The notes under the pieces were generated by a model. The model did no database searches. It had not been told where the DNA came from and saw only the letters and a program-made list of their open reading frames with translations. From assembly GCA_947177225.1 (NCBI GenBank), contig CAMWTS010000007.1, positions 2,778 through 66,777 of the forward strand: DNA of 64,000 nt, written 5' to 3'. The DNA is from an uncultured Alistipes sp. (lineage in GTDB: Bacteria; Bacteroidota; Bacteroidia; Bacteroidales; Rikenellaceae). Position 1 is the first letter of the stretch. Every line of letters begins with the position of its first letter. The translations under genes were made by a program, and so were the position numbers. Shown here piece by piece: positions 8,249 to 50,251 of this stretch.

Positions 8249-11200
8249 CTACCTGAGCGGGCGGAGCATGAATGTGAAACGATAGTCGTCGTAGGGCAGC
8301 GTATGCTCCTCGCGGGGCAGTGCGTTCCAGCTGTTGACGCAGCCCACGCCCTGCTGTTTCAGATCGAAGTTGACATAGGTGCACCCGTCTTTTTCGAGTT
8401 CGGGGAAGTGTTTGGCCGAGACGGGCGACATGATGTCGATGCTTTCGGGCGAGTAGGGTATGGCCGAGGCGGAGAAGTGTTTGTCGGAGCGTATCTCCAA
8501 TCCGCGGCCTGCGCTGTCGCGTATTTGCCACCAGCGCAGTGCGCAGTGGGTTCCCGACTCCTGCGGACGCACGTAGAGCGGGTAGAACTGTTCGTCGACA
8601 CTCTGCACGTAATGACCGATGCGTGCTCCGCTGAGACGGTCGCAATAGTTCTCGAAAGGACCTGCACCATAGAATTCCACCGTATCGAACATCGACGGCA
8701 TGGCCATGGTCATGCCGAAACGCATCAGTTTTTTGATATCGGTGCGGCTCTTGTCGGCAGTCATGCTTTCGGTTGCGATCACCTCGCCGCCGGGACAAAT
8801 GCGATAGGTCATCTCCAATGCGGCTCCCGTCTCTACGATGATATATGCAGCTGTGGCGACTATGTCGCTGCCTTCGCGGTCGATAGCGAACGATTGCAGC
8901 TGCGGCTCGACATTGCGCCATGCAAACCAGTTGTGCGAGGTGTTGTGCCTGGCTCCGTCGTCATTGTCTACGGGCGCGCGGTAGAAGCTGGGACGCAGTG
9001 CCGAGCATAGCATCTCGATGCCGTCGTATCGGTAGCCGGCGATGAAGCCGTCCGAGCCGAACTCCACCCGGAAACGGTCGCCCGTGACCGTGTGCGAGTC
9101 GAGCCTGAGTGCGCCGGCTTCGGCTGCCGTTGCGCCGAAGTGTGCCGCCATATCGCAGCTCTTCACCTCGATCTGATCGTAAGCTACTTCGTAGCCCGCT
9201 TGCAGCAGTGCGTCGCGACGTTTGAGCGTGTAGGAGAGGTCGAGCAGAATCTCGTCGCCAGCCAGAGCGTCGATGTCGGCCGCCGTGTAGCCGAGCGATA
9301 CGACGGCAGTCTGTTGCGGTGCCACGTCGAGATGCTCCACCGTGCCGCTCATGGCAGCCGCACCGTCGACGAGCAGTTGCCAGTGGAGACGGTATTTCGA
9401 CAGATCGATGAAAAAGTTCTCATTGAAGATCTCCACACGGCCGTTGCGCACGTCGTGGTCGCGGGTGAGTATGTTGCGCTGCTGATATTTCACCTCGTAT
9501 GCTCCCGGGTGCCAGTCGCGGTTGGGTGCCACCACTCCGTTGCAGTTGAAGGTGCCGTCCGAGGCGTCGTATTCGTTGTAGTCGCCGCCGTAGCGATAGG
9601 TCAGTATGCCCGTCGCCGGATCGCGGTAGGCCAGAGCCTGATCGGCGAAGTCCCAGATGAAGCCTCCCTGATAGGCCGGATATTTGCGCACCAGATCCCA
9701 ATACTCCTTGAAGCCGCCCAGCGAGTTGCCCATGGCGTGAGCATATTCGCACTGAATAAGCGGCCGCGACGGATTGCCCGAAGCGTATTGCCGGCAGTAA
9801 TCGTAGCCTGCGTACATCGGGCAGTAGATGTCGGTGTCGAAGTCGGTCTCTGCGCGTTCGTATTGCACCGGTCGGCTCTTATCGTAGCTCTTGATCCACT
9901 CGTAGCACTTGTAGAAGTTGTGACCGTTGCCGGCCTCGTTGCCCATGCTCCAAATGATGATCGAGGGGTGGTTGTAATCGCGCATCACCATGCGTTGGTT
10001 GCGGGCGAGGTGAGCTGCGAGATAATCCTCTCTTGCTGCGAGCGTCCTCTCTGCGTAACCCATGCCGTGCGATTCGATGTCGGCCTCGTCGACGAGATAG
10101 ATGCCGTAGATGTCGCACAGGTCGTACCACAGCGGGGCGTTGGGGTAGTGACACGTGCGCACGGCATTGAAGTTGAGTCGTTTGATAGTCTCGATGTCAT
10201 TGACCATATCCTCGCGCGTTAGGTAGTAACCCGTGTTGGGGTTCATCTCGTGGCGGTTGACTCCCTTGATATATATCGGACGGCCGTTGACCAGCAGCTG
10301 TCCTCCGGCTATCTCCACCTTGCGGAATCCGACGTTGAATCCCGTGGCCTCGACGATCTGTTTGCCGTCCGATGCTGCGACGCTCAGACGGTAGAGGTTG
10401 GGCTCTTCGGCACTCCATTTGCGCGGTGCCGCCACCTCGAAGCGTGTCTTGACACTGCCGCCGTCCACCGGACAGTTGCGCTCGCAGATGGTGTTGCCCT
10501 CAGAATCGACCAGACGCAGTGCCACGCTGCGTATGCCGCGCGTTGTGCCGATTTCGATGTCGAGCAGGCCGTCGGTGCAGCCGTTTACAAGGTCGGGCGT
10601 GAGTTTTATGTCGGTCATGCGACGCTTGTCGCGTGAGTAGATATAGCAGTCGCGGCCTATGCCCGTCATGTGCCAGAAGTCCTGATCTTCGAGATAGGAG
10701 CCGTCGCACCAGCGCATGATACGCATGGCGAAGAGGTTCTTCTCTCCGCACTTCACGTATCGCGTTATGTCGAATTCAGCCTCCAATTTGCTGTCTTCGC
10801 TGTAACCCACTTCGCGCCCGTTGACCCAGAGCGTGAGGTTGGAGGTCGCCGATCCGATATGGACGAAAATGTCGCGCCCCTTCCATTCGGCCGGCACCTC
10901 TATCTCCCGAAGATACGAACCTACGTGGTTCTGCTCCACGGGAACATAGGGCGGATTGTCGGCGAAGAACTTGTGCCAGGGGTATGGTATGTTGGTGTAG
11001 ACAGGATCGCCATAGCCGTTCATCTCCCACATTCCCGGTACGGGCATCGTGCCCCATGACGAGGTGTCGAAGCCCGGACGGTAGAACATTTCGGGTTGCT
11101 CGGCAGGGGTGTCAGCCCAGTGGAACTGCCACACTCCGCCTATGGAGCGATACTGCGGCGACGAACGGAAGTCGCTGATATATTGCACCTCGTCGACGGT

Positions 11201-33422: not shown

Positions 33423-33567
33423 CACCACAAAGATACAGCAAAAAAGGCGACAATATATCCTCCGTGTCGAACTATTGTTGGATACGGGGTAGATAAATGA
33501 TGCAAGTTGCGGTATATTTATAAAATAATTATTACTTTTGCCGGAAACTATAATCTGTTATCGTTCA

Positions 33568-34944
33568 ATGAAGAAACTTCTCGTCTCGTTCTTTTCGGTC
33601 ATATCCGTTCTCGGTGTTTCGGCTCAGGATATGACAGCCTATTTCGTCGAGGGATCGACATTCCGTTCGCAGCTCAATCCTGCATTGGCACCTCTGAAAG
33701 GATATATCAATATTCCGCTTGTCGGAAGCATTCAGGCCGGAGTCAACGGCAATATTCCGATAGGCGCACTGCTGTTCGACAACGGCGGCAGTCTGACCCC
33801 GTTTACCGATAGCGGAATATCGGCCGAGGCCGTGCTCGGACGGCTCTCTGCCAACAACGATCTTAACATCGGCAGCCGCATAGGATTGATCGGATTAGGT
33901 AGATATACGAGCAAGGGGCATTCGTTCTGGTCGTTCGATCTCGCGCTCAACATCGATGCCGAGATCAATGCTCCGCGCGAGCTGTTTTCGTTCTTGAAAG
34001 GCGGTGAGGCAGCAGACATACGCGATTTGCATGTGTCGCTGAAAAGCTATGCTGATGTCTCGTTCAACTACTCGTTCCGTGTGGCTCCGTGCCTGTATCT
34101 GGGCTTGCGTGCCAAGTTCGTCTCAGGCCTGCTGGGAGCCGATTTCGCGCTCGACCGCTTCGATGTGTCTGTCGGTTCCGAGCGTTGGTATGCCGACGTT
34201 GCCGGCAGTATCGAGATGAACGGCATCAGCGAGGAGCTGCAACCGGGCGATTGCATATACCTGGACGAGCTGACCGATTATATCGATCTGTCGAGCCTTG
34301 CCCGTCCGGCAGGTTACGGCGGTGCGATCGATATCGGCGCCACCTACGATCTCACCGGCTGGCTGCAACTCTCGGCTTCGGTCAACGATCTGGGCTTTGT
34401 CAAGTGGGGCAACGGCAGCACGCGCCGGTTCACGTTCGAGCAGAGCGTGTCGTCCGACGACATATCCATTGTCGACGGCAAGATCGAGTATCCCGAAGAT
34501 ATAAACTTTGATGGCGTGCAACTGAATGTCGTCGAGGGTTCGGGTTCGACGCAGCGTCTGACCACACGCATCAACGTCGGTGCGGATTTCGAACTGCTCG
34601 ACCACCGCTTGGGCTTCGGTGTGCTGTATAATGCCCGTATATGTCCCAACAAGACCTATCACACGCTGATGGGATCGGTCAACATTCACCCGCTGCGCTG
34701 GATAGGACTTACGGCGGCATATTCGGTTATCGACAACAAGGCGGGAGCAGTGTCGTTTGCTCTGAACATATGTCCGAGCTGGATCAACCTCTATGTGGCC
34801 ACCGACGTTTTGCTCGGCAGTCATGTAGGATATATGATTCCCGATCGCGGCTCCAAGGCCAATGTCACATTCGGCCTGGCTATTCCCATGGGACGCTGGG
34901 GCGCACGACGATTCAACACTCACCGCTCGCGCGGATATTTGTAA
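33568..34944 (+). CDS. DUF5723 family outer-membrane protein
   Basis: Signal peptide; FRSQLNPALAP, GGAIDIGATY, SASVNDLGFVKW; beta-barrel-like alternation. Start MKKLL at 33568. Confidence 0.8.
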   Translation: MKKLLVSFFSVISVLGVSAQDMTAYFVEGSTFRSQLNPALAPLKGYINIPLVGSIQAGVNGNIPIGALLFDNGGSLTPFTDSGISAEAVLGRLSANNDLNIGSRIGLIGLGRYTSKGHSFWSFDLALNIDAEINAPRELFSFLKGGEAADIRDLHVSLKSYADVSFNYSFRVAPCLYLGLRAKFVSGLLGADFALDRFDVSVGSERWYADVAGSIEMNGISEELQPGDCIYLDELTDYIDLSSLARPAGYGGAIDIGATYDLTGWLQLSASVNDLGFVKWGNGSTRRFTFEQSVSSDDISIVDGKIEYPEDINFDGVQLNVVEGSGSTQRLTTRINVGADFELLDHRLGFGVLYNARICPNKTYHTLMGSVNIHPLRWIGLTAAYSVIDNKAGAVSFALNICPSWINLYVATDVLLGSHVGYMIPDRGSKANVTFGLAIPMGRWGARRFNTHRSRGYL

Positions 34945-35147: not shown

Positions 35148-38100
35148 ATGAAGTACTTGTTTCTTCAAGTGCTGTTGCTGCTCGCAGTGGTGAGCGGCAC
35201 ATATGCACAGGTTACGACCTCATCTGTGGGCGGTCGTATTACGGACCATGAGTCCAACCCTTTGATCGGCGTCAGCGTTACGGCCGTTCATCAACCATCG
35301 GGCACGCGCTACGGCGTGGCTACCGATCTATCCGGACAATATACCATTACTGGCATGCGTGTGGGCGGACCATACCTCGTTACGATCAGCTATGTGGGCT
35401 ACACTACGGTCGAGGTAGGCGACATCGAGCTGCTGCTGGGCGAGAGCCGCCGTATCGATGCGGCTATGGAGCCGTCGCTGATGATCGATGCTGTTTTCGT
35501 CACGGCCGACGATACGCAGGGCTTGCAGCATGGCAGCGGCAGCAGCTTCCGTGCCGATAAAATAGCCTCCATGCCAACCATATCACGCTCGATATACGAC
35601 ATTACGCGGCTCTCGCCTCTTACGGGTTCGCCCAAGGCCGGAGGCGTGACTATCGCCGGTGCCAGCACTCGCTACAATTCGTTCAAGATCGACGGCGTTG
35701 TCAGCGACGATGTTTACGGTCTCGGCACAACGGGCATGACCGGTTCGCTGACGCAGGCCAATCCCATACCGCTCGATGCCATCGAGCAGATCCGCGTTTC
35801 TGTGGCGCCGTTCGATGTGCGTGAGGGCGGATTCACCGGCGGTGGAATCAATGCCGTTACTAAGGCCGGCGACAATACGCTGCGCGGTTCGGCCTATGCC
35901 TATTACAACGATCAGAACTTCTACGGCACCACGCCCGGCAGCGATGTCGCGGTGCGCGAGAAGCTGTCGAGCCAGACCACGCAGATCTATGGCGTGTCGT
36001 TGTCGGGACCTGTCGTGCGCGACAAACTGTTCTTCTTCGTCAATGGCGAGTATAATCGCAACGTAATACCGTCGGCCTATCACCCCGGCGAGGCGGGTTC
36101 GGCCGTCACGGCCGAACAGGCTCGTGTCATAGGCGATAAATATGCCGAGCTTACCGGCTGGAACAGCGGCGGCTACGGCCGTCATGATGCACCTGCCATG
36201 TCGGGAGCTTTCATTGCGCGTCTCGATTGGAATATCGATTCGACGCATCACATGTCGCTGCGCTACAACATGCTGCATGCCGATAAGAACGACACCTCCA
36301 ACTCGTCGCAATACTTCTATTTCACCGGAGCCGAGTACACCAATATCAACCGCATGCACTCGCTGGTAGCCGAGCTTAATTCGACATTTTCGTCGTGGAG
36401 CAATATCCTCCGCGCAGGCTATACCTATCTGCGCGACGGTCGCGAGACGGAGCGTCTGCTGCCGGCGGTAATCATCACCGGTACCGGAGCGTCTTCTAAC
36501 GGTACGACTGTGCTGGGAACAAACCAGTATGCCGGTCAGAACATGCTAAAACAGAACATATTCATCATATCCGACAATGCCAGCATCTATCTTGGCGACC
36601 ACACGCTGACCGTCGGCACCCACAACGAATTCTATACGGCCGACAACCTCTATCTGAGCAATGCTGCCGGCACATATACATACTCTTCGATCGACGATTT
36701 CCTTGCCGAGGGCGACGGTCTCGGAGCGCACGCTTCGCAATATGCCTACAACTACTTCATCGATCGCAGCGGCTCGGCGGCCAAATTGTCGAGTGCGCAG
36801 CTGAGTCTGTATGTGCAGGACAACTGGCGCCGCGGCGATCTGTCGCTTACCTACGGTCTGCGACTCGACATGCCGCTTCTGTTCTCGTCGCCGCGCACCA
36901 ACGATGCCTTCAACAGCAGCAGCTTTGCCGAGAAATACGGCGTGCGTACGGGCGACGTGCCGCGTGCGCAGGTGTTGTTGTCGCCGCGTGTGGGTTTCAC
37001 GTGGCATCACGGCGATCTTATGCTGCGTGGCGGTGCCGGCGTATTTACCGGCAGCGTACCGTTCGTATGGCTCAACAACTGCTACCAGAATACCGGTCTT
37101 ACGCAGTTCGGTTTGACGGTCAATGATCCCTCTCAAACACCCGCATTCAGTCTTACCCCCTCGCAGCAGGGTGTGGTGGGCAACCCATCGATCGATGTCG
37201 TCGACAAGGATTTCCGCTTCCCGCAGGTGTTCCGTGCCAACCTGGCTGCCGAATACGATCTCAGCGGCTGGAAGTTCTTGGTCGAGGGACTCTACACCAA
37301 GGGCATCAACAATGTCGTTTACCGCAATCTGGTGGCCGAGCAGCAGGGGCTGTGCCTGTTTATGGCCGATACCGATTCGCCGTCGGCTCCCTACTATACG
37401 TCGGATACGGGCGACTACTCGGCGGTATATCGTCTGTCGAATACCCGTCGCGGTCATTCGTGGTCGGTTTCCGGACGCGTTGAGCGCAACTTCCCATTCG
37501 GTTTGAGTTTGATGGCCGCTTACGCATATTCGCAATCGAAGAGCGTCAACGACGGCATTTCGGCTCAGGGATCGAGCAACTGGGGACGCACCTATGCCGT
37601 CGACTCAAACTCTCCCGATCTGTCGTACTCGGTCTACGATTTCCCCCACAAGGTGGTGGCCATGGTCTCATATACGCGCCGTTACGGATTGTTCGGCACA
37701 ACAGTTACACTGGTCTACGACGGCCATTCGGGCGAACGCTACTCGATGACCTATGCCCGCGGCCGCGTCGATGAAAACGGAGATACCTATCGCGGCAATA
37801 CACTTATGTATATACCCACGCGCGAGGAGATGACGCGTACGCTCTGGGCAGATGCCACATCGCAGCAGGCGTTCGAGGAGTATATCGAGGCCGACGACTA
37901 CCTGCGGTCGCACCGCGGCAGCTTTGCCGGGCGCAACTCGCATCTTCTGCCGTTCGAGCATCGGCTCGATCTGCATGTGGCGCAGGCGTTCTATTTCAAC
38001 CGTCGCGATTCGCGTCGTGTGGAGCTGAGTCTCGATATCATCAATTTGGGCAATCTGATCGACCGCAGCTGGGGTGCCTCCTACCTGACGAGCAACTGGT

Positions 38101-38243
38101 CGCTGTCGCCGGTCACCGTGACTGAGTTGCAGGCCGTCGATGGCGGCTATCGTCCGGTCTACAAGTTTACGGGTGCGTCTCCCACGCGCGACGACATACT
38201 CTCGCGCTGGCATATGCAGCTTGGAGTGAGAGTGGTGTTCTGA
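35148..38243 (+). CDS. TonB-dependent receptor, Oar-like, with an N-terminal carboxypeptidase-regulatory-like domain
   Basis: Signal peptide, GRYTI..MRVGGPY, IPLDAIEQI, GGFTGGGINAVTKAG plug region, C-terminal QLGVRVVF. Confidence 0.88.
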   Translation: MKYLFLQVLLLLAVVSGTYAQVTTSSVGGRITDHESNPLIGVSVTAVHQPSGTRYGVATDLSGQYTITGMRVGGPYLVTISYVGYTTVEVGDIELLLGESRRIDAAMEPSLMIDAVFVTADDTQGLQHGSGSSFRADKIASMPTISRSIYDITRLSPLTGSPKAGGVTIAGASTRYNSFKIDGVVSDDVYGLGTTGMTGSLTQANPIPLDAIEQIRVSVAPFDVREGGFTGGGINAVTKAGDNTLRGSAYAYYNDQNFYGTTPGSDVAVREKLSSQTTQIYGVSLSGPVVRDKLFFFVNGEYNRNVIPSAYHPGEAGSAVTAEQARVIGDKYAELTGWNSGGYGRHDAPAMSGAFIARLDWNIDSTHHMSLRYNMLHADKNDTSNSSQYFYFTGAEYTNINRMHSLVAELNSTFSSWSNILRAGYTYLRDGRETERLLPAVIITGTGASSNGTTVLGTNQYAGQNMLKQNIFIISDNASIYLGDHTLTVGTHNEFYTADNLYLSNAAGTYTYSSIDDFLAEGDGLGAHASQYAYNYFIDRSGSAAKLSSAQLSLYVQDNWRRGDLSLTYGLRLDMPLLFSSPRTNDAFNSSSFAEKYGVRTGDVPRAQVLLSPRVGFTWHHGDLMLRGGAGVFTGSVPFVWLNNCYQNTGLTQFGLTVNDPSQTPAFSLTPSQQGVVGNPSIDVVDKDFRFPQVFRANLAAEYDLSGWKFLVEGLYTKGINNVVYRNLVAEQQGLCLFMADTDSPSAPYYTSDTGDYSAVYRLSNTRRGHSWSVSGRVERNFPFGLSLMAAYAYSQSKSVNDGISAQGSSNWGRTYAVDSNSPDLSYSVYDFPHKVVAMVSYTRRYGLFGTTVTLVYDGHSGERYSMTYARGRVDENGDTYRGNTLMYIPTREEMTRTLWADATSQQAFEEYIEADDYLRSHRGSFAGRNSHLLPFEHRLDLHVAQAFYFNRRDSRRVELSLDIINLGNLIDRSWGASYLTSNWSLSPVTVTELQAVDGGYRPVYKFTGASPTRDDILSRWHMQLGVRVVF

Positions 38244-38473
38244 CGCCGCATCTCGCCGTGGCGGTGACGTAATATCGGCGTAAGCCGACAGGCTGCCTGT
38301 CTGTTTTTGCGGGGCGATTCGATGATTTGTCATCGGGTCGCCCCGATTTTGTCGATTGAAAAAGTTCGATTTCTCGCACTTTTTCCCGCCTCGGCATAGT
38401 TCGAACAAGTTCGGCACTGCCCTCGGCTTAATGAAAAAGTTGTTTTATTTGTTGTATTGTCTGTAAATTTTTA

Positions 38474-38481
38474 TACCTTTG
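38474..38481 (+). promoter_or_regulatory. -7 promoter box in front of the cobalamin riboswitch
   Basis: TACCTTTG immediately 5' of the riboswitch P1 helix. Confidence 0.7.
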
Positions 38482-38485
38482 TCTT

Positions 38486-38666
38486 CGCTTAGGTTCTCCG
38501 CAGGCTGCGCAAGCCTGCATGAGATTAAAAGGGAAACGGGTGTGAATCCCGTACAGTTCCCGCTGCTGTAATTTCCGAAATGGATTTGCGACACTCTAAG
38601 CCACTGACTCTTGCTTTGAGTTGGGAAGGCGTCGCAACCGGAATAAGTCAGAAGACCTGCCGAGCG
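38486..38666 (+). ncRNA. Cobalamin (B12) riboswitch
   Basis: aaaagggaaacgggtgtgaatcccgtacagttcccgctgctgtaa core, gccactg...tgggaaggc, and a 3' B12 box aagtcagaagacctgcc; P1 cgcttaggt/acctgccgagcg. Confidence 0.92.
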
Positions 38667-38858
38667 ATTGTAACGAGATTCGTGCCTGCGGTGAACGGGA
38701 CGGTCGGAGACTTTTTAGTTTCACGGATATACTTTATGTCGGAAGATGTCGGGGCGCATGGAGTGCGTCGTCGATAGCCGAAGCGGGGTAGTCGGAGGTA
38801 GGTTTCTCGTCGCGAACAGTAACTTTTTTAACAAACATTAGTATAAAAAATTTACGCG

Positions 38859-41216
38859 ATGAAAAAACTTCTGACTATTGTTGTCTGCACGTTTGCGCTT
38901 GCTGCGTGTCAGTACGATGACAGCGAATTGCGGCAGTCGATAGGCGATCTGACGGATCGTGTCGAGGCCATCGAAGGCTCGGTGGGCAGTCTCAATTCGC
39001 AGATTTCCACTATCCGCGAGTGTCTCGATGCACTCTCGGCCGGAAAGGTGATAATGAAGGTAACCCCGACCGATGCCGGCTACGATCTCACCATGAGCGA
39101 CGGTTCGGTCATCTCGATTCTGAACGGCCGCGACGGCGACAAGGGCGAGCCGGGAGACAAGGGCGATGCGGGTGACAAGGGTGATACCGGTGCCGCCGGC
39201 GAGCCCGGCCATACACCCGTTATCGGTGTTAAGCAGGATAGCGACGGTCTCTACTACTGGACTGTCGACGGTGAGTGGCTTGTCGACGGCGAAGGCAATC
39301 AGGTGCTTGCCGAGGGTCGCAACGGATCGGACGGCCAGACCGGACATACGCCTGTCATAGGTGCTGCCAAGGACGACGACGGAGCATATTACTGGACTGT
39401 CGACGGCGAGTGGCTCGTCGACGGCGAGGGCAACAAGATCAAGGCTTCGGCGGAGGATGCGGCAGAGTCGTTGTTTGCGAGCGTGGTCGAGCGCGACGAT
39501 GCGGTTGTCATCACGCTGACCAGCGGAACTGTGCTGACACTGCCCAAACTGACCGATGCCGCCATAGAGTGGGTCGATGATGCCGACTACAACTCATACT
39601 ACGGCGACAGTCAGCCGATAAAGATCAATACCGAAAATATCATCTCGGCTACGGTTACGGCTCCTTACGGTTGGACGGCATCGGTCAATCTCACCAAGGG
39701 CGAGGTCAACGTTACGGCTCCCTGGGTGGATCTCGATGTCGAGTATGATGGTTACATCTCGGTTATCGCCGTTACGAAGAGCAACGTTCCCGTGACCATT
39801 TCCAAGCGTGTGACCACGAGCTACGATATCACCGATGCCGCCAAGGCGCACGATCTTCTGCTCAATGTCATACCCGAATATGCCTCGGCGGCCAATCCGT
39901 TCAATGCCGTGTTCAATATCACCGAGCCGCAGAACTCGTATTGCAATGTGGCCATGACCTCTCTGACGGCCGATGCCGTACCTACGGTGACGTTCAACTT
40001 CATGCAGGGCGGTACGGGTCAGGTCAACATAGGCTCGTCGTCGATGACTTATTCTGGCGAGATCTATATTAATATAGGTGAGGGGTACGAGCTGACCATG
40101 AGCGGCAATATCAACTGCCCCAAGGGTTCGGTTATTCTCTCAGGCCGTTACAACGCCTCGTTCGGTCCCTATTGCGGTTTGTGCTTCATCACCGAGGGTT
40201 CTTACGTAAAGCAGTTCAATTTCCGATACAATACCGTCAAGCTCATCAACTGCGGTACGATCGATACGCTCAATGTAACCGTTACGGCCGAGGCTGTCAA
40301 CTACGGTACGATAGTCAACATCATCGACAACAACGACCGTCTGACGATTGTTCCGGTGCGCAACATGTCGAAATCATCGTCGAAGTTCATATCGAAGGTC
40401 ATCGAGTTCAACCCTGCACCGGGTCAGTACGGTTCGGGCAACTACTCTTCGCAGAGTGCGGCTCAGGGCATCGTGGGCAAGAGCGGTATGGTGTCGCTGG
40501 GTATGTTCGGCGGTTATATCGTCTTCCAGTTCGACCACTCGATCATAAATCTGCCCGGAACGGACTTCGTCATAGGCGGTAACCCTATGGCTACGTCTGC
40601 CGAGCCGGGAGCCGTCATGGTATCGTTCGATGCCAACGGCAACGGCATTGCCGACGACGAGTGGTATGAGTTGAAGGGCAGTCTCTACGATGCTCCGGAG
40701 ACAGTGCACGACTACTCGGTGACCTATCGCAAAGATACCGATAACAACTGCATACGCTGGACGGACAATCAGGGCGAGGAGGGTACCATCTCATGGAACG
40801 GTGCCAACAAGTCGCTTGCGTGGTGGCCTAAGGATAATCTCTCGGACGAATATACGCTTACGGGCAACAAGCTGGGAATCGTCACCATGTGGAACGCTTC
40901 GGATCTGTTGCAGGGACTGACCTACGGTTATGCCGACGTGCTCACCGACGACTACAATACGGTCATCGGCGGTGACAACGACACCAAGGGCAACAAGTTC
41001 GACATCTCGTGGGCTGTCGACAAGGACGGCAATCCGGTGAAGCTGCTGGCTGTCGATTTCATCAAGGTCTACAACCCGGTATTCGCCATCGACCACAACT
41101 ATCCGTCTTTCAACGAGGTGTCTACCGAGGTGTGCAAAGGCGTGTCGTTGACACCCGCCAATCTGCCTGCCCTTATGAGCGGCATCGGCGACTGGCAGAA
41201 CGGATCATCATTCTAA
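38859..41216 (+). CDS. Surface lipoprotein: coiled coil, collagen-like repeat, PL29-N/DUF4988-like repeats and a C-terminal 'cell surface protein' (BtuH-like) domain
   Basis: Lipobox FALAAC; 10 GXY triplets; two YYWTVDGEWLVDGEGN repeats; C-domain KVIEFNPAPGQY...SLGMFGGYIVFQFDH...AEPG...DDEWYELKGS. Confidence 0.8.
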   Translation: MKKLLTIVVCTFALAACQYDDSELRQSIGDLTDRVEAIEGSVGSLNSQISTIRECLDALSAGKVIMKVTPTDAGYDLTMSDGSVISILNGRDGDKGEPGDKGDAGDKGDTGAAGEPGHTPVIGVKQDSDGLYYWTVDGEWLVDGEGNQVLAEGRNGSDGQTGHTPVIGAAKDDDGAYYWTVDGEWLVDGEGNKIKASAEDAAESLFASVVERDDAVVITLTSGTVLTLPKLTDAAIEWVDDADYNSYYGDSQPIKINTENIISATVTAPYGWTASVNLTKGEVNVTAPWVDLDVEYDGYISVIAVTKSNVPVTISKRVTTSYDITDAAKAHDLLLNVIPEYASAANPFNAVFNITEPQNSYCNVAMTSLTADAVPTVTFNFMQGGTGQVNIGSSSMTYSGEIYINIGEGYELTMSGNINCPKGSVILSGRYNASFGPYCGLCFITEGSYVKQFNFRYNTVKLINCGTIDTLNVTVTAEAVNYGTIVNIIDNNDRLTIVPVRNMSKSSSKFISKVIEFNPAPGQYGSGNYSSQSAAQGIVGKSGMVSLGMFGGYIVFQFDHSIINLPGTDFVIGGNPMATSAEPGAVMVSFDANGNGIADDEWYELKGSLYDAPETVHDYSVTYRKDTDNNCIRWTDNQGEEGTISWNGANKSLAWWPKDNLSDEYTLTGNKLGIVTMWNASDLLQGLTYGYADVLTDDYNTVIGGDNDTKGNKFDISWAVDKDGNPVKLLAVDFIKVYNPVFAIDHNYPSFNEVSTEVCKGVSLTPANLPALMSGIGDWQNGSSF

Positions 41217-41237
41217 CGGTAAAAAATGTACAAAGCA

Positions 41238-43073
41238 ATGAAAAGATACATCATATACGCCCTGCTCGGCTGTGCGCTCGTGCTCGGCAGCTGTGCAAAA
41301 GATTTCGATACCGATTCTCCTGCTCCCGTCGTTCCCGACAACCAGGAGGGCATAATACCTATGTCGCTCACCATGTCGGGCGAGCAGGCGGCAACGCGTA
41401 CCGATATGGTCGGCAACCGCGTACTGTGGAACGAGAACGATCGTCTGGGTATATTTTCGCCCGAAGCCTACTACGAGTGGAAGATGTCGTTCTTGCCCGA
41501 CAACCTCTATTACAACAATCCGGTCAACAACGTCTGCATGGAGATCGGGTCGGGAGCCGGATCGGCAGCCGCTACGTTCAAGATATCGTCAGTTTATGAG
41601 GGCGATACACCCGAATACACCGGTCGCTGGGGCTGGAACACCAAGAGCGAGCAGCTCAATTTCTACATGTATTATCCCTATCAGGAGGCGGCCAAGGCTG
41701 CTACCAAGCCCACGGCTCTGCCCTTTACGCTGCCTTCGGCTCAGAAGCAGAGCGGATCGGACAATACAGGCCGTTTCTCGGAGTACGATCTGGTATATGC
41801 CTCTACCGTGCTCGATCTGCCGGCCGAGGCTGCCGACAAGTCGGTCATAGAGGATAATCTGATATTCGATTTCGACCACGCTTTCGCCGTGTTGAAGATT
41901 ACGGTCGGCAACTACACGGCCGGTGCCGCCACGGTCACCGGAGTACGCCTCGCATCGGGTGATGGTCAGCCTTTGGCCGGCAACTTCACTCTCGACCTTA
42001 CCACGGGCAGCCTGACATCGGGACAGACGATCGATGCTTCGGGTGCTGTTGTCGAGGGTGTGTCGTCAAGTTCTGTGACTACGACCTTCGACGAGGGTGT
42101 AGAGGTTGCGCGTTACCAGTCGGCCGTATTGTATCTGTTCGTCAATCCGGTCGATCTCACCGCCACCGATACCAATGTGCTGACCGTCTATACTACCGAC
42201 GGTTACCAGCAGTTCGCGTTCAAGGCTTCGCGTGCCTTCGAGCCGGGCAAGATCTACACGCGCTCGCTTACGGTGCGCGAGTTGGAGACTTATCCGACGG
42301 CTACGCTCGATTTCGAGAGTGTCGATGCCAAGTATCTTGCCGGTCAGACATCGTATGGCGCCAACCTCTATAATGCCGAGAAGGACAAAACATCTTACGA
42401 GGGCGACCAGTTCATATCATACACCGATCCTGCAACGGGTCTTGTGATAGGCATCAACGACTACAACGATACTTATGTCACCATGTCGACCTACAAGAGC
42501 TTCTTCGGCGGCGGCCTGGCCATATCGCAGTGGAACGACATGACGCAGAACAGCTATCTCAACCAGTGCAGCGTATATTGCAAAGACGCTTCGACGGGCA
42601 AGGGCGGCGCCGACGGTTCGTCGACATTCGCCGTGGCCTACGGCTACGACGACGGCAGCGCATACAGCACCGACAACCGTTCGTCGTTCTACTTCGCCGA
42701 GGCGGGACGCGAGGCTGTCATATCGTCGCTCTGCGTATGCAATACCACCTATGTCCATCTCTGCCTGAAAGACGGCAACAGCTTCTCGACACCTATGTCT
42801 TACGACAAGAACGACTACTTCCGCGTGACGTTTACGGGTATCGACGCCGCAGGCGCCCAGACTGGCAGTGTGGCATACTATTTGGCCGATTTTCGCACGG
42901 AGTCTGCTCCCGGCATAGCCGAGGGCTGGAACAAGGTCGACCTCTCGCCGCTGGGCAGCGTGCACAAGGTCGTTATCAATTTCGAGGGCAGCGACAGCGG
43001 TGAGTATGGGCTTAATACGCCGGCTTACTGCGCAATAGATAATATCGAAGTGCGATTTACTTCGGTAGAGTAA
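41238..43073 (+). CDS. Fimbrillin (type V pilin)-like lipoprotein fused to a C-terminal DUF4465 (BtuJ-like) domain
   Basis: Lipobox LVLGSC; AATR-TDM...W.ENDRLGIF and FDHAFAVLKITV fimbrillin motifs; C-domain ATLDFE...NTTY...YYLADFR...GWNKVDLSPLG...GLNTPAYCAIDNI. Confidence 0.82.
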   Translation: MKRYIIYALLGCALVLGSCAKDFDTDSPAPVVPDNQEGIIPMSLTMSGEQAATRTDMVGNRVLWNENDRLGIFSPEAYYEWKMSFLPDNLYYNNPVNNVCMEIGSGAGSAAATFKISSVYEGDTPEYTGRWGWNTKSEQLNFYMYYPYQEAAKAATKPTALPFTLPSAQKQSGSDNTGRFSEYDLVYASTVLDLPAEAADKSVIEDNLIFDFDHAFAVLKITVGNYTAGAATVTGVRLASGDGQPLAGNFTLDLTTGSLTSGQTIDASGAVVEGVSSSSVTTTFDEGVEVARYQSAVLYLFVNPVDLTATDTNVLTVYTTDGYQQFAFKASRAFEPGKIYTRSLTVRELETYPTATLDFESVDAKYLAGQTSYGANLYNAEKDKTSYEGDQFISYTDPATGLVIGINDYNDTYVTMSTYKSFFGGGLAISQWNDMTQNSYLNQCSVYCKDASTGKGGADGSSTFAVAYGYDDGSAYSTDNRSSFYFAEAGREAVISSLCVCNTTYVHLCLKDGNSFSTPMSYDKNDYFRVTFTGIDAAGAQTGSVAYYLADFRTESAPGIAEGWNKVDLSPLGSVHKVVINFEGSDSGEYGLNTPAYCAIDNIEVRFTSVE

Positions 43074-43105: not shown

Positions 43106-43144
43106 GGGCGGGAGACTGCATGGACGGTCTCCCGCCCGATTTTT
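43106..43144 (+). terminator. Terminator of the riboswitch operon
   Basis: 11-bp inverted repeat gggcgggagac/gtctcccgccc followed by T5. Confidence 0.75.
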
Positions 43145-46766: not shown

Positions 46767-46922
46767 TATTGTGCCGCGCCATTCGAGCATAAGCGAGAAA
46801 TCCGTGTGCGATTATCTCCATCGTCATATCGCTATGGTTGAGGTATGTATATTAAAAAAAAGAGTGCGCCGCGAATATCGGCACACTCTCTTGTTGTCCT
46901 GAGTCGGAACGATCCGCCCCAA

Positions 46923-47864
46923 TTATTTGTTCTGCGACAGATCGGCGATGGCCTTCTGTGCAATGGCCACCTTGTCGCCGGCAGTTACCTTTTTCATCAC
47001 CTCGATGGTCTTCTCGGGATTGTTCTTGCTGTTGTAGGCCATACCCAGCAGATAGTAAACATCGCTCTTGTCCTCCTCGGTGGGCTGAACGGCGGCAGCC
47101 TCCTCGGCCAGCTCGATCACCTTGTTGTAGTCCTTCTTGCCGAGGTATGCCTGCAAAGCGATCTTCTTGCCCAGAGCCTCGTTGTCGAGCTGCTCGGCCA
47201 TGGCGATGATGCCGTCGTAGTCGTTTGCCATCTGCAACTTGGCAACCTCGTTGTTGGTGTAGAGGCTCATCTTTGCGCGAGCCTCGGCGATAGCCTCGCC
47301 GTATTTGGTCTCGGGCAGTTTCTCGATATCGGCGCAGATGGCCATACCCTCCTGGTAACGGTCGCTCTTGAAGTAGCTCTCGGCAAGGTTCAGTGCCATG
47401 TCCGTATTGCGGGGGTTAGCCTCGTATCCCTTCGAGAATACCTCGATGGCCGTAGCGTAGTCGCCCGAATTGAATGCGTCGGCACCCTGGGCCTGATATA
47501 CGTTGGCAATGGTCTGCTTGGCCTTGGCGGCGGCACGGGCGTTGTCGTAGAGCTCGGCCATGTCGGCAGCCTGCTGCAAGTTGGTCAGAGCCTCCTCATA
47601 GTTGCCGGCAGCGGCGGCAGCCGTACCCATGTTCTGATAGCATACGGGGATAAAGGTCTTCGACTTGGCCACGATACCCTGCACCGTAGCGTCTTCCGAA
47701 TCGATACCCTCGTCTACAACCTTGTTGAACAGATCCAGGGCTTCGGTGTAATTCTTGGCTTTTGCGGCAGTCACCGCTTCATTGAACGTGGTCACTATCT
47801 CAGACTGTGCGAAGAGCGACACCGAAAACAGAAGCGCAGCCGCGCTTAAAAATAATCTTTTCAT
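46923..47864 (-). CDS. Exported tetratricopeptide repeat protein
   Basis: Signal peptide MKRLFLSAAALLFSVSLFA; helical repeats (GNYEEALTNLQQA, GDYATAIEVFSKG). Confidence 0.85.
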   Translation of the reverse strand: MKRLFLSAAALLFSVSLFAQSEIVTTFNEAVTAAKAKNYTEALDLFNKVVDEGIDSEDATVQGIVAKSKTFIPVCYQNMGTAAAAAGNYEEALTNLQQAADMAELYDNARAAAKAKQTIANVYQAQGADAFNSGDYATAIEVFSKGYEANPRNTDMALNLAESYFKSDRYQEGMAICADIEKLPETKYGEAIAEARAKMSLYTNNEVAKLQMANDYDGIIAMAEQLDNEALGKKIALQAYLGKKDYNKVIELAEEAAAVQPTEEDKSDVYYLLGMAYNSKNNPEKTIEVMKKVTAGDKVAIAQKAIADLSQNK

Positions 47865-48493: not shown

Positions 48494-50251
48494 ATGTACA
48501 GGACTCACACTTGCGGAGAGCTTCGTCTCTGCAATGTCAATCAGACGGTTACCCTCGCCGGTTGGGTGCAGAAGGTGCGCAATCTGGGTGCCATGACCTT
48601 TTTCGATCTGCGCGACCGTTACGGTCTGGTGCAGGTCGCCGTCGAGGAGCACTCGTCGGCTGACGTGCGCGAGGCTGCCGCCTTGCTCGGCCGCGAATAT
48701 GTCGTGCAGGTGACGGGTCGCGTCATCGAGCGTGCCTCGAAGAATCCCAAGATGCCCACGGGCGAGATAGAGATCGCTGCCGAGCAGATTACGGTGCTCA
48801 ATCGTGCTCAGACTCCGCCGTTCACCATCGAGGAGAACTCCGACGGAGGCGACGATCTTCGCATGAAGTATCGTTACCTCGATCTTCGCCGTCCGCCGTT
48901 GCAGCGTGCCATGATACTGCGCCATCGCATGGCTCAGGCCGTCCGCACGTTCCTCGACAGGGAGGGATTCCTCGAAATAGAGACTCCCTATCTGATAAAG
49001 TCGACCCCGGAGGGTGCGCGCGACTTTGTGGTGCCGAGCCGCATGAATCCCAATCAGTTCTATGCGTTGCCGCAGTCGCCGCAGACATTGAAGCAGTTGC
49101 TGATGGTGGCCGGTTACGATCGCTATTTCCAGATCGTGCGCTGTTTCCGCGACGAGGATCTGCGTGCCGACCGTCAGCCCGAATTCACGCAGATCGACTG
49201 CGAGATGTCGTTCGTCGAGCAGGAGGACGTATTGGAGATCTTCGAGCGTTGGGCGAAACACATGTTCCGCGAGGTGCTCGGCATAGAGTTCTCTGAGCCG
49301 TTCCGCCGCATGCCGTGGATCGAGGCCATGGAGAAATACGGATCGGACAAGCCCGATGTGCGTTTCGGCATGGAGTTCGCCGACCTGACCGACCTGGCTC
49401 ACGGGCACGATTTCGTCGTATTCGACTCGGCCGACTACGTAGTGGGCTTCGCTGCTGAGGGTTGCGCCGGATATACGCGCAAGCAGATCGACGAACTCAC
49501 CGAGTTTGTCAAGCGTCCTCAGGTGGGAGCCAAGGGTCTTGTATGGATCAAGTTGGAGGCCGGCGGCAATATCAAGTCGTCGATCGACAAGTTCTTCTCG
49601 GCCGACGATCTTCGCAAGATGGCCGAGCGTACGGGTGCCAAGGAGGGCGATATGATACTGGTGCTGTGCGGCGAGAAGTTCAAGACTCTCTCGCAGCTCT
49701 GTACTTTGCGTTTGGAAGTGGCGCAGCGTCTGGGTCTGCGCGATCCCAAGAAGTTCGCTCCGCTGTGGGTGGTCGACTTCCCGATGTTCGAGTGGGACGA
49801 AGAGACGCAGCGTTTCTACGCTATGCACCACCCGTTCACCTCGCCGAAGCCCGAAGATGCCCGCTTCTTCGATACGGGCGAGCTGGGCAAGATGCGCGCC
49901 AATGCCTACGACTTCGTCTGCAACGGTACGGAGATCGGCGGCGGTTCTATACGTATCCACTCGTCGGAGTTGCAGGGCAAGGTGTTCTCGGCTTTGGGCT
50001 TTACGCCCGAGCAGGCCGAGGAGCAGTTCGGCTTCCTGATGAACGCATTTAAGTTCGGTGCGCCTCCCCATGGAGGTCTGGCTTTCGGTTTCGACCGTCT
50101 GTGCTCGCTGTTCGGCGGTTCGGACTCTATCCGCGACTATATCGCATTCCCGAAGAACAATGCCGGCCGCGATGTGATGCTCGATGCACCGTCGGCCATC
50201 GACACAGCTCAGCTCGACGAGCTTTACCTATCGCTCAAAGAGGTGGAATAG
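48494..50251 (+). CDS. aspS: Aspartate--tRNA ligase
   Basis: [50 protein letters not shown]. Confidence 0.98.

Follow-up and report, generated by a model that had tools for sequence, protein, structure and literature searches.

What is the function of a lipoprotein from a gut bacterium in which a coiled-coil and collagen-like stalk is joined to a head of the vitamin B12-binding type, and how many chains does such a stalk comprise? This question is raised by an open reading frame (ORF) at positions 38859-41216 (+) of the 64,000 nucleotides from contig CAMWTS010000007.1 of an uncultured Alistipes sp. (GCA_947177225.1), a stretch of DNA which is called the window here. The ORF codes for a protein of 785 amino acids, and a cobalamin riboswitch lies upstream of it. 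We consider it likely that the product is a cobamide-scavenging surface lipoprotein of the BtuH family in a gut Alistipes-like bacterium, carried by a probably trimeric stalk of the DUF4988 type.

Six parts can be distinguished in the protein, which are a lipobox, a heptad-repeat helix of 39 residues, two runs of G-X-Y triplets (10 and 4), two hairpin repeats, an immunoglobulin (Ig)-like and a beta-rich domain, and the BtuH-type C-terminal domain. A first-pass annotation, made from the letters alone, had listed the ORF, lipobox, heptads, G-X-Y triplets, repeats, beta segments and C-terminal domain, and all of them were found again where it had placed them. Its count of 10 consecutive triplets from position 39126 was exact (residues 90-119), and its two GHTPVIG repeats are two copies of a 126-nt direct repeat (39173-39298 and 39308-39433, 74% identity). 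The Ig-like and beta-rich segments that it had listed correspond to Ig matches in Foldseek and to a modelled beta-rich domain. The structural statements are based on a full-length AlphaFold2 model of the monomer, for which an alignment of 90 sequences was used as input and which reached a mean predicted local distance difference test (pLDDT) value of 83.5 and a predicted template modelling score (pTM) of 0.75.

The assignment to the BtuH family is carried by the C-terminal domain. In a phmmer search against PDB sequences, residues 505-764 matched residues 215-491 of 7BIZ_A (E = 2.7e-31) and residues 391-654 of 8BLW_B (E = 5.6e-32). The top three matches of Foldseek in the PDB were 7biz_B (E = 3.8e-22), 7biz_A and 8blw_B (E = 7e-19), followed by the next match at 6e-5; the low TM-scores are solely due to the comparison of whole multidomain chains. 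Entry 7BIZ is the B12-bound BtuH2 (BT_1956) of Bacteroides thetaiotaomicron, the fold of which had no other structural homologues (PMC8941943), and chain B of 8BLW is BtuG1, a protein to which a BtuH domain is fused (PMC10404256). The first-pass annotation had equated this domain with BtuH, though less certainly than it had made its DUF4465 call, and the name is now supported by sequence as well as by fold; the beginning of the domain, put at about 40380 before, lies at about residue 506 (nt ~40374). Membership in the BtuH family can therefore be stated with high confidence, and it is quite likely that the head binds a cobamide or another corrinoid.

Further evidence is provided by the genomic context. 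The 3′ end of the riboswitch aptamer (RF00174) is located 181 nt upstream of the start codon, and nine related loci were tested, one of them in a Chitinophagaceae genome, each of which has a cobalamin riboswitch in front of its BtuH-type gene or btu operon. The BtuH-type gene is followed by a partner gene encoding a protein with DUF4465, the BtuJ-type B12-binding domain, which matches PDB entry 9I2L (E = 6.5e-23). Both genes adjoin each other in six of six genomes, namely the window and the related loci L001-L005. Due to the riboswitch, the flanking terminators and the gap of only 9 nt between the genes, they can be regarded as a two-gene riboswitch operon, which is isolated from an upstream TonB-dependent-receptor-like gene by the two terminator-like structures at 38287-38345. 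It speaks against the proposed function that no relative of btuB or btuG was detected within the 64-kb window in a search with Alistipes queries. In L005, which belongs to A. putredinis, the pair of BtuH-type and DUF4465 genes is followed by BtuG-like and BtuB-like genes.

The contact residues described for BtuH2 (PMC8941943, PMC13616437) were mapped on an alignment of 92 rows. The ligands of the Na/Ca-phosphate site of BtuH2, N399, E406, D522, S582 and E584, correspond to N575, E582, D693, S755 and E757, which are invariant in all 15 members of the clade. Q333 corresponds to Q523, likewise invariant in the clade, and F334 is exchanged conservatively for Y524 (Tyr in 14 members, Phe in one). 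The side of the pocket that faces the corrin ring differs, and here the evidence weighs against a head equivalent to that of BtuH2. Y475 is replaced by Ala, H476 by Asn and W577 by Ser, while Y510 and W511 are deleted, and all five of these corrin-wall residues are replaced or deleted in 15 of the 15 clade members. Among the BtuH domains sampled from outside the clade, there is none that lacks all three of H476, an aromatic residue at 511 and an aromatic residue at 577, although these contacts vary in the wider family, too (H476 is present in 55, W511 in 39 and W577 in 42 of 74 domains). As the corrin wall is rebuilt, homology by itself does not guarantee that B12 is bound, and affinity or specificity may differ or be lost.

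It could thus be that the ligand has changed: the head may bind another corrinoid (e.g., cobinamide or a cobamide that differs in its lower ligand), perhaps with the aid of residues of the neighboring beta-solenoid-like domain, or it may be a non-binding module for docking or hand-over that serves the DUF4465 partner. The loss of the corrin wall, which is confined to this clade among the sampled BtuH domains, coincides with the presence of that clade-specific domain (residues 321-505), which occurs almost nowhere else. In addition, the partner is strictly adjacent, and the pTM of the full-length model is reached despite a disordered stalk, which could reflect packing between the head domains. 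However, the fully conserved phosphate site and the retained Q333 argue for a cobamide bearing a nucleotide loop, the riboswitch is conserved at each of the nine loci, and the contacts of BtuH2 to the lower ligand are weak (PMC8941943), so that changes in the pocket wall need not abolish binding. A changed ligand is therefore rated as unlikely. For the cobamide-scavenging lipoprotein favored here, binding of B12 is likely because of the context and the intact phosphate site, but an affinity or selectivity equal to that of BtuH2 cannot be assumed.

The clade-specific domain consists of one helix and a beta-solenoid-like stack. It appears as a beta-rich domain at residues 350-497 of the full-length model, and a dedicated model of residues 321-510 reached a pLDDT of 90 and a pTM of 0.85. 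When this model was compared with the PDB by Foldseek, no match had an E-value below 1.5, and the similarity seen to beta-helical ice-binding proteins was vague. A search of 1.84 billion representative proteins with residues 230-505 gave only 14 matches at E ≤ 1e-3, the five strongest of which are members of the family. The Ig-like domain in front of it matches the Ig-like domains of cadherin, SraP and a Bacteroides surface glycan-binding protein (SGBP-B) in Foldseek (E ~1e-4). Against viral structures (BFVD), the full model gave only weak matches to Ig and tail-fibre proteins, with E of at least 1e-4.

The N-terminal part of the protein was identified as DUF4988 (PF16378, the 'PL29 family lyase N-terminal domain'), which was matched with 101.4 bits (gathering cutoff 30) and extends from residue 1 to about 235. 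The match falls into two stretches, between which the G-X-Y run forms an insertion; the stretch on the side of the hairpins covers residues 117-229. Residues 1-94 also match the first 92 positions of the NCBIfam model for the PL29 lyase BT3328 (NF058554, BT3328 family hyaluronic acid endo-lyase). This match is limited to the N-terminal 92 positions, and the score is 73 bits against a full-length cutoff of 1100. A conserved N-terminal region of about 300 amino acids has been described in BT3328, BT3329 and other proteins encoded at SGBP positions, and was proposed to be a spacer (Ndeh et al., PMC6994673). No structure of DUF4988 was found in the sequence search of the PDB, and no paper on its structure or oligomeric state in the literature search.

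The lipobox is directly followed by an acidic stretch. C17, Y19, D20 and D21 are invariant among the 15 full-length homologues, and in BtuH2 the analogous export signal is formed by C18-E22 (PMC8941943). Judging from this signal, the lipoprotein is presumably exposed on the cell surface.

The acidic stretch leads into the heptad-repeat region, which AlphaFold2 models as a single helix (residues 22-60). Its hydrophobic residues 24, 28, 31, 35, 38, 42, 45, 49, 52, 56 and 59 follow a strict 4-3 spacing over about five perfect heptads. Within this helix, the trimerisation motif R-hxxhE lies in register with the heptads. It specifies parallel three-stranded coiled coils, yet certain dimers contain it as well (PMC3653964). 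Both R34 and E39 are invariant, and the motif is present in 15 of 15 clade members as well as in all 16 other sampled coiled-coil proteins of the DUF4988 type that lack a BtuH head, several of which contain two copies seven residues apart.

The second argument comes from the collagen-like run. By our estimate, ten glycines in phase would arise by chance in about 1e-7 of proteins with a glycine content of 10%. At the main site, 9-11 triplets are found in the five closest homologues and 5-6 in two others, and some of the eight more distant homologues without a run at this site have 3-5 triplets behind the second hairpin. The runs of the homologues differ by whole triplets (9, 10, 11, 5 and 6). 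Part of the tract is built from two copies of an 18-nt unit (39135-39170), and in a near-identical strain from another gut metagenome (run X2) a third copy is inserted in frame (+18 nt behind 39155), which adds DKGDAG and leads to 12 triplets. This change in copy number represents a length variation of the stalk resembling that of variable number tandem repeats. Many other DUF4988 proteins carry even longer G-X-Y runs. The indels of whole triplets imply that a glycine at every third position has been maintained through repeated changes in length, as is required by a triple helix and not by a disordered linker.

A different explanation is that the same BtuH-type B12 binder is a monomer. DUF4988 would then serve as a flexible spacer made of a single chain, and the G-X-Y tract would be a disordered low-complexity linker, prone to slippage, by which merely the reach of the head is tuned. 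Several of the results count in favor of such a monomer and against a trimer. Ile and Val at position a combined with Leu at position d are also the classical pattern of dimers, and the R-hxxhE motif is predictive and not decisive (PMC3653964). In the monomer model, the pLDDT of residues 91-116 stays below 50, a value that is equally compatible with a disordered linker and with a triple helix that was not modelled. The run of ten triplets includes only two prolines and scores 21.4 bits with Pfam Collagen (PF01391), below the cutoff of 27.2. Across homologues and strains the length ranges from 0 to 12 triplets, and since eight of the 15 full-length homologues, the more distant ones, have no run of at least three triplets at the main site, the long run is not essential to the family. 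In addition, the spacer proposal (PMC6994673) is the sole published view of such an N-terminal region, and in BtuH2 this task is fulfilled by monomeric PKD domains (PMC8941943). On the other hand, a disordered linker would have no need to retain the spacing of three between its glycines over several indels, the trimerisation motif shows neither variation nor a shift against the heptads, and a lone amphipathic helix of 39 residues with about five perfect heptads would be unstable beside the membrane. A monomer is thus rather improbable. The trimeric stalk gains support from the invariant in-register motif together with the triplet phase that is kept through the indels, and on these features of the sequence it is the probable, though by no means secured, arrangement.

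Two weak similarities of the stalk were recorded besides. The best match among PDB sequences was FibU of phage 80alpha (6V8I, E 0.001-0.009); it was rejected as a structural precedent, as its collagen-like part, to which residues 89-139 correspond weakly, is unresolved. Only 12 copies of FibU were seen and they were described as dimers (PMC7048315). The hairpin motif in residues 160-200 (39342-39446) matches the N-terminal parts of the GH98 structures 9H6F, 9H6G and 9H6H weakly (E ~0.06), and these structures might show its fold.

Collagen-like runs on bacterial surfaces also suggest an adhesin similar to Scl1/Scl2 or Lcl, which would bind host matrix or other cells and for which the link to B12 would be incidental. 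The G-X-Y run indeed gave weak NCBIfam matches to SclA, SclB and Lcl (E 3e-5 to 7e-4). They reach only 18-24 bits against cutoffs of 325-500 and do not extend beyond the G-X-Y tract, an LPXTG motif is absent from the protein, its head is of the BtuH type, and a cobalamin riboswitch was found upstream in every relative tested. Such an adhesin is very improbable and was rejected.

For the BtuH-type lipoprotein with a trimeric stalk, the following course can be proposed. The protein would be co-expressed with its BtuJ-type partner from the two-gene operon, which the riboswitch would repress as long as the intracellular cobamide level is sufficient. It would be anchored by the lipid at Cys17 and exported to the cell surface, where three chains of the DUF4988 module, with helix, beta-meander, G-X-Y runs and hairpins, would most likely assemble in parallel. 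The resulting stalk would be about 15-20 nm or more in length, as estimated from standard rises per residue, and would bear the Ig-like, the beta-solenoid-like and the BtuH-type domains. The latter would grip the nucleotide-loop phosphate of a cobamide via the conserved Na/Ca site, and a BtuG-BtuB transporter, whose genes would be located in another part of the genome, would then take over the captured cobamide. The benefit of having three binding sites on each fibre would lie in capacity and reach; the avidity that the first-pass annotation had expected from three heads does not apply, as no meaningful gain would result for a small monovalent ligand like B12.

The coiled-coil and collagen layout is the same as in collectins and C1q. 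Among bacterial and phage proteins, an alpha-helical trimerisation module next to a short collagen-like run bearing globular heads is also found in EPclA from prophages of E. coli O157 and in gp12 of SPP1, which were both shown experimentally to be trimeric (PMC3368898, PMC6316719). They have no sequence homology to the window protein beyond G-X-Y, and in contrast to them the fibre described here would be anchored by a lipid and would carry a head for a small cofactor, not for a polymer or a capsid.

Among the BtuH proteins, the C-terminal globular domain of about 270 amino acids with the same fold is shared with BtuH2 (BT_1956, 7BIZ), BtuH1 (BT_1488) and the H-domain of BtuG1/BtuGH (BT_1490, 8BLW). 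Further common properties are the residues of the Na/Ca-phosphate site and Q333, the location behind a cobalamin riboswitch and beside a DUF4465 (BtuJ) gene, and an N-terminal spacer that keeps the head off the membrane. BtuH proteins are surface lipoproteins with an acidic export signal, as is predicted for the window protein. In published BtuH proteins, the head either has no extension or is linked to PKD domains or to a beta-propeller (PMC8941943, PMC13616437). Where the known proteins have three PKD domains, nothing or a beta-propeller as the spacer, it consists here of DUF4988, the Ig-like and the beta-solenoid-like domain. Moreover, Y475, H476, Y510, W511 and W577 of BtuH2 are all changed, btuB and btuG are absent from the operon, and the protein is probably a trimer, as far as its motifs indicate, while no trimeric BtuH was found in the literature.

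A further difference to the known BtuH proteins is an additional C-terminal tail. It is conserved in 15 of 15 homologues, with W779 and G782 being invariant and the last residue being Phe or Leu, and it has no counterpart within the matches to 7BIZ and 8BLW. The tail could be a docking peptide, e.g., for the Mfa-like module of the partner.

With respect to the stalk, the DUF4988 region of the PL29 lyase BT3328 and the SGBP BT3329 has the same lipobox, acidic signal, heptad helix with R-hxxhE, beta-meander, G-X-Y run and hairpins (PVIG...YW..DG). The head differs, being a lyase or a glycan binder there and a putative cobamide binder here. A fusion of DUF4988 to a BtuH-type head is also known from Flavobacteriia and Sphingobacteriia, in which DUF4988-PKD-BtuH proteins of about 520 amino acids are common and keep the canonical pocket. 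One of them, P0066 from Flavobacterium plurextorum, is named 'PL29 family lyase N-terminal domain-containing protein' in the database, so that the arrangement of stalk and BtuH head was already present in sequence databases. In contrast to the window protein, the flavobacterial proteins have a PKD linker, neither a long G-X-Y run nor a beta-solenoid-like domain, a motif variant RMAQYE with Tyr at position d, and the H476, W511 and W577 pocket. Additionally, the DUF4988 stalk of an Alistipes metagenome-assembled genome (MAG; L059) bears a DUF4465 head, and in B. thetaiotaomicron the DUF4988-type N-terminal region bears PL29 lyase and SGBP heads (PMC6994673). Based on these combinations, DUF4988 is a recurrent modular stalk for cobamide-binding and glycan-active heads.

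Full-length relatives of the window protein were found in genomes of Alistipes/Rikenellaceae, at 83% (L001), 60% (L002), 46% (L003 and L004) and 37% (A. putredinis, L005). The three sequencing runs containing the stretch are all labelled as gut metagenome. By its sequence, the protein represents a clade-specific elaboration of this stalk, in which the G-X-Y run is long, an Ig-like and a unique beta-solenoid-like domain are present, and the BtuH pocket is rebuilt. Its parts are known, but the combination of stalk and BtuH head and the altered pocket are not described in the literature searched, in which no paper linking BtuH to a coiled coil, collagen or trimers was found. The homologous gene of L005 (8001-10422 of an A. 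putredinis MAG, CP091730.1) is not a single ORF: the longest ORF begins at 8518 with GTG, and the best tblastn segment covers only residues 126-671. The gene may truly be truncated, or a frameshift or an error in the assembly may be the cause.

The structure of gut communities is shaped by competition for cobamides, and BtuH2 is needed for the fitness of B. thetaiotaomicron in mice (PMC8941943). The accessory B12 binders known so far are monomeric lipoproteins from Bacteroides with PKD or propeller scaffolds. The locus described here suggests that Alistipes/Rikenellaceae have put the BtuH domain on another, probably trimeric scaffold which is common to glycan-binding proteins and lyases. With its conserved phosphate-gripping metal site and its rebuilt corrin wall, the protein is a natural test case for the question which BtuH residues determine affinity and cobamide selectivity, and at the same time for the quaternary structure of the widespread DUF4988 'spacer'. 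As a more far-reaching and tentative proposal, DUF4988 may be a general trimerising stalk of surface lipoproteins in Bacteroidota, and the Alistipes clade may possess a fibre whose composite head, formed by the beta-solenoid-like domain and the rebuilt-wall BtuH domain, selects other corrinoids than BtuH1 and BtuH2. If this were true, many proteins encoded at SGBP positions, PL29 lyases and B12 binders of the BtuH and BtuJ types would be three-headed lipid-anchored fibres, the length of which would be tuned by slippage of G-X-Y triplets. If the protein were monomeric and bound B12 like BtuH2, it would be just one more BtuH homologue.

The coordinates of all features are given in Table 1. Bacteroidota promoters have a -7 box with the consensus TAnnTTTG, to which the candidate box listed there conforms.

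Table 1. Features of the BtuH-type lipoprotein gene and its surroundings. Positions refer to the window, residue numbers to the 785-residue protein.
Feature	Position	Strand	Remarks
Two terminator-like hairpins at the end of the upstream TonB-dependent-receptor-like gene	38287..38345	+	16-bp stem (10 GC pairs) and T-run; 6-bp stem and T-run
Cobalamin riboswitch aptamer (RF00174)	38473..38678	+	96.8 bits, gathering score 31.5; full-length model match
Candidate promoter -7 box, TAccTTTG	38474..38481	+	matches TAnnTTTG; coincides with the beginning of the Rfam hit, which leaves the true 5′ end uncertain
Signal peptide and lipobox LAAC, MKKLLTIVVCTFALAA-C17	38859..38909	+	residues 1-17; lipidated Cys17, invariant
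Acidic stretch QYDDSE behind Cys17	38910..38927	+	resembles the Bacteroidota signal for surface export of lipoproteins; Y19, D20, D21 invariant
Heptad-repeat alpha-helix	38922..39038	+	residues 22-60; a = I28, V35, V42, I49, L56; d = L24, L31, I38, L45, I52, L59
Trimerisation motif R34-V-E-A-I-E39, Arg(g)-h(a)-x-x-h(d)-Glu(e), in register	38958..38975	+	motif as defined in PMC3653964
Small beta-meander, GYDLTMSDGSVISILNG	39051..39122	+	residues 65-88; part of DUF4988; from conservation and AlphaFold2 model
Collagen-like run of 10 G-X-Y triplets	39126..39215	+	residues 90-119; KGE and KGD pairs; length-polymorphic
Two beta-hairpin repeats, GHTPVIG...YYWTVDGEWLVDGEGN	39207..39446	+	residues 117-151 and 162-196; motif PVIG...YYWTVDGEW
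Second G-X-Y run of 4 triplets, between the hairpin repeats	39315-39350	+	residues 153-164
Ig-like beta-sandwich domain	39564..39818	+	residues ~236-320; strands from the model
Clade-specific domain, one helix followed by a beta-solenoid-like stack	39819..40373	+	residues 321-505
BtuH-type cobamide-binding domain (by homology)	40374..41168	+	residues 506-770; putative Na/Ca-phosphate site N575, E582, D693, S755, E757
C-terminal tail ...SGIGDWQNGSSF and stop codon	41169..41216	+	residues 771-785; pLDDT < 50
Partner gene, Mfa-like (fimbrillin-like) module and DUF4465 (BtuJ-type B12-binding domain)	41226..43073	+	starts 9 nt behind the stop codon of 38859-41216
Strong intrinsic-terminator-like hairpin	43106..43137	+	13-bp stem, 10 GC pairs, T-run; end of the two-gene operon

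Upstream of the operon, the gene at 35148-38243 encodes an outer-membrane protein of 1031 amino acids with the domains CarboxypepD_reg, Plug and OMP_b-brl_4, and its synteny extends to L001 and L002. As it lies before the riboswitch and is separated from it by the terminators, this gene probably does not belong to the B12 operon. In the window it is preceded by a gene for a DUF5723 protein (33538-34944); synteny was seen only for the outer-membrane gene. Further downstream, the ORFs of 337 and 636 amino acids behind the L002 locus showed no similarity to the window ORFs at 46845-47849 and 48494-50251.

Proteins with the Lcl C-terminal domain (PF07603) are encoded downstream in two loci of the btu type, L002 (15359-16000) and L059 (14103-15485). 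The latter is part of a larger arrangement (L059, 7989-15485), also found in L050 and L079, in which a riboswitch is followed by genes for a DUF4988-DUF4465 protein (405 aa), a PKD-BtuH protein, a DUF5074/BtuG-like protein, a BtuB-like protein with a Plug domain and the Lcl_C-domain protein. Finally, the btu locus is located near guaB in the window and in Alistipes MAGs, either immediately before guaB (L079) or a few kb away on the opposite strand (L050, L059), and this guaB-linked site seems to house btu operons of variable content.

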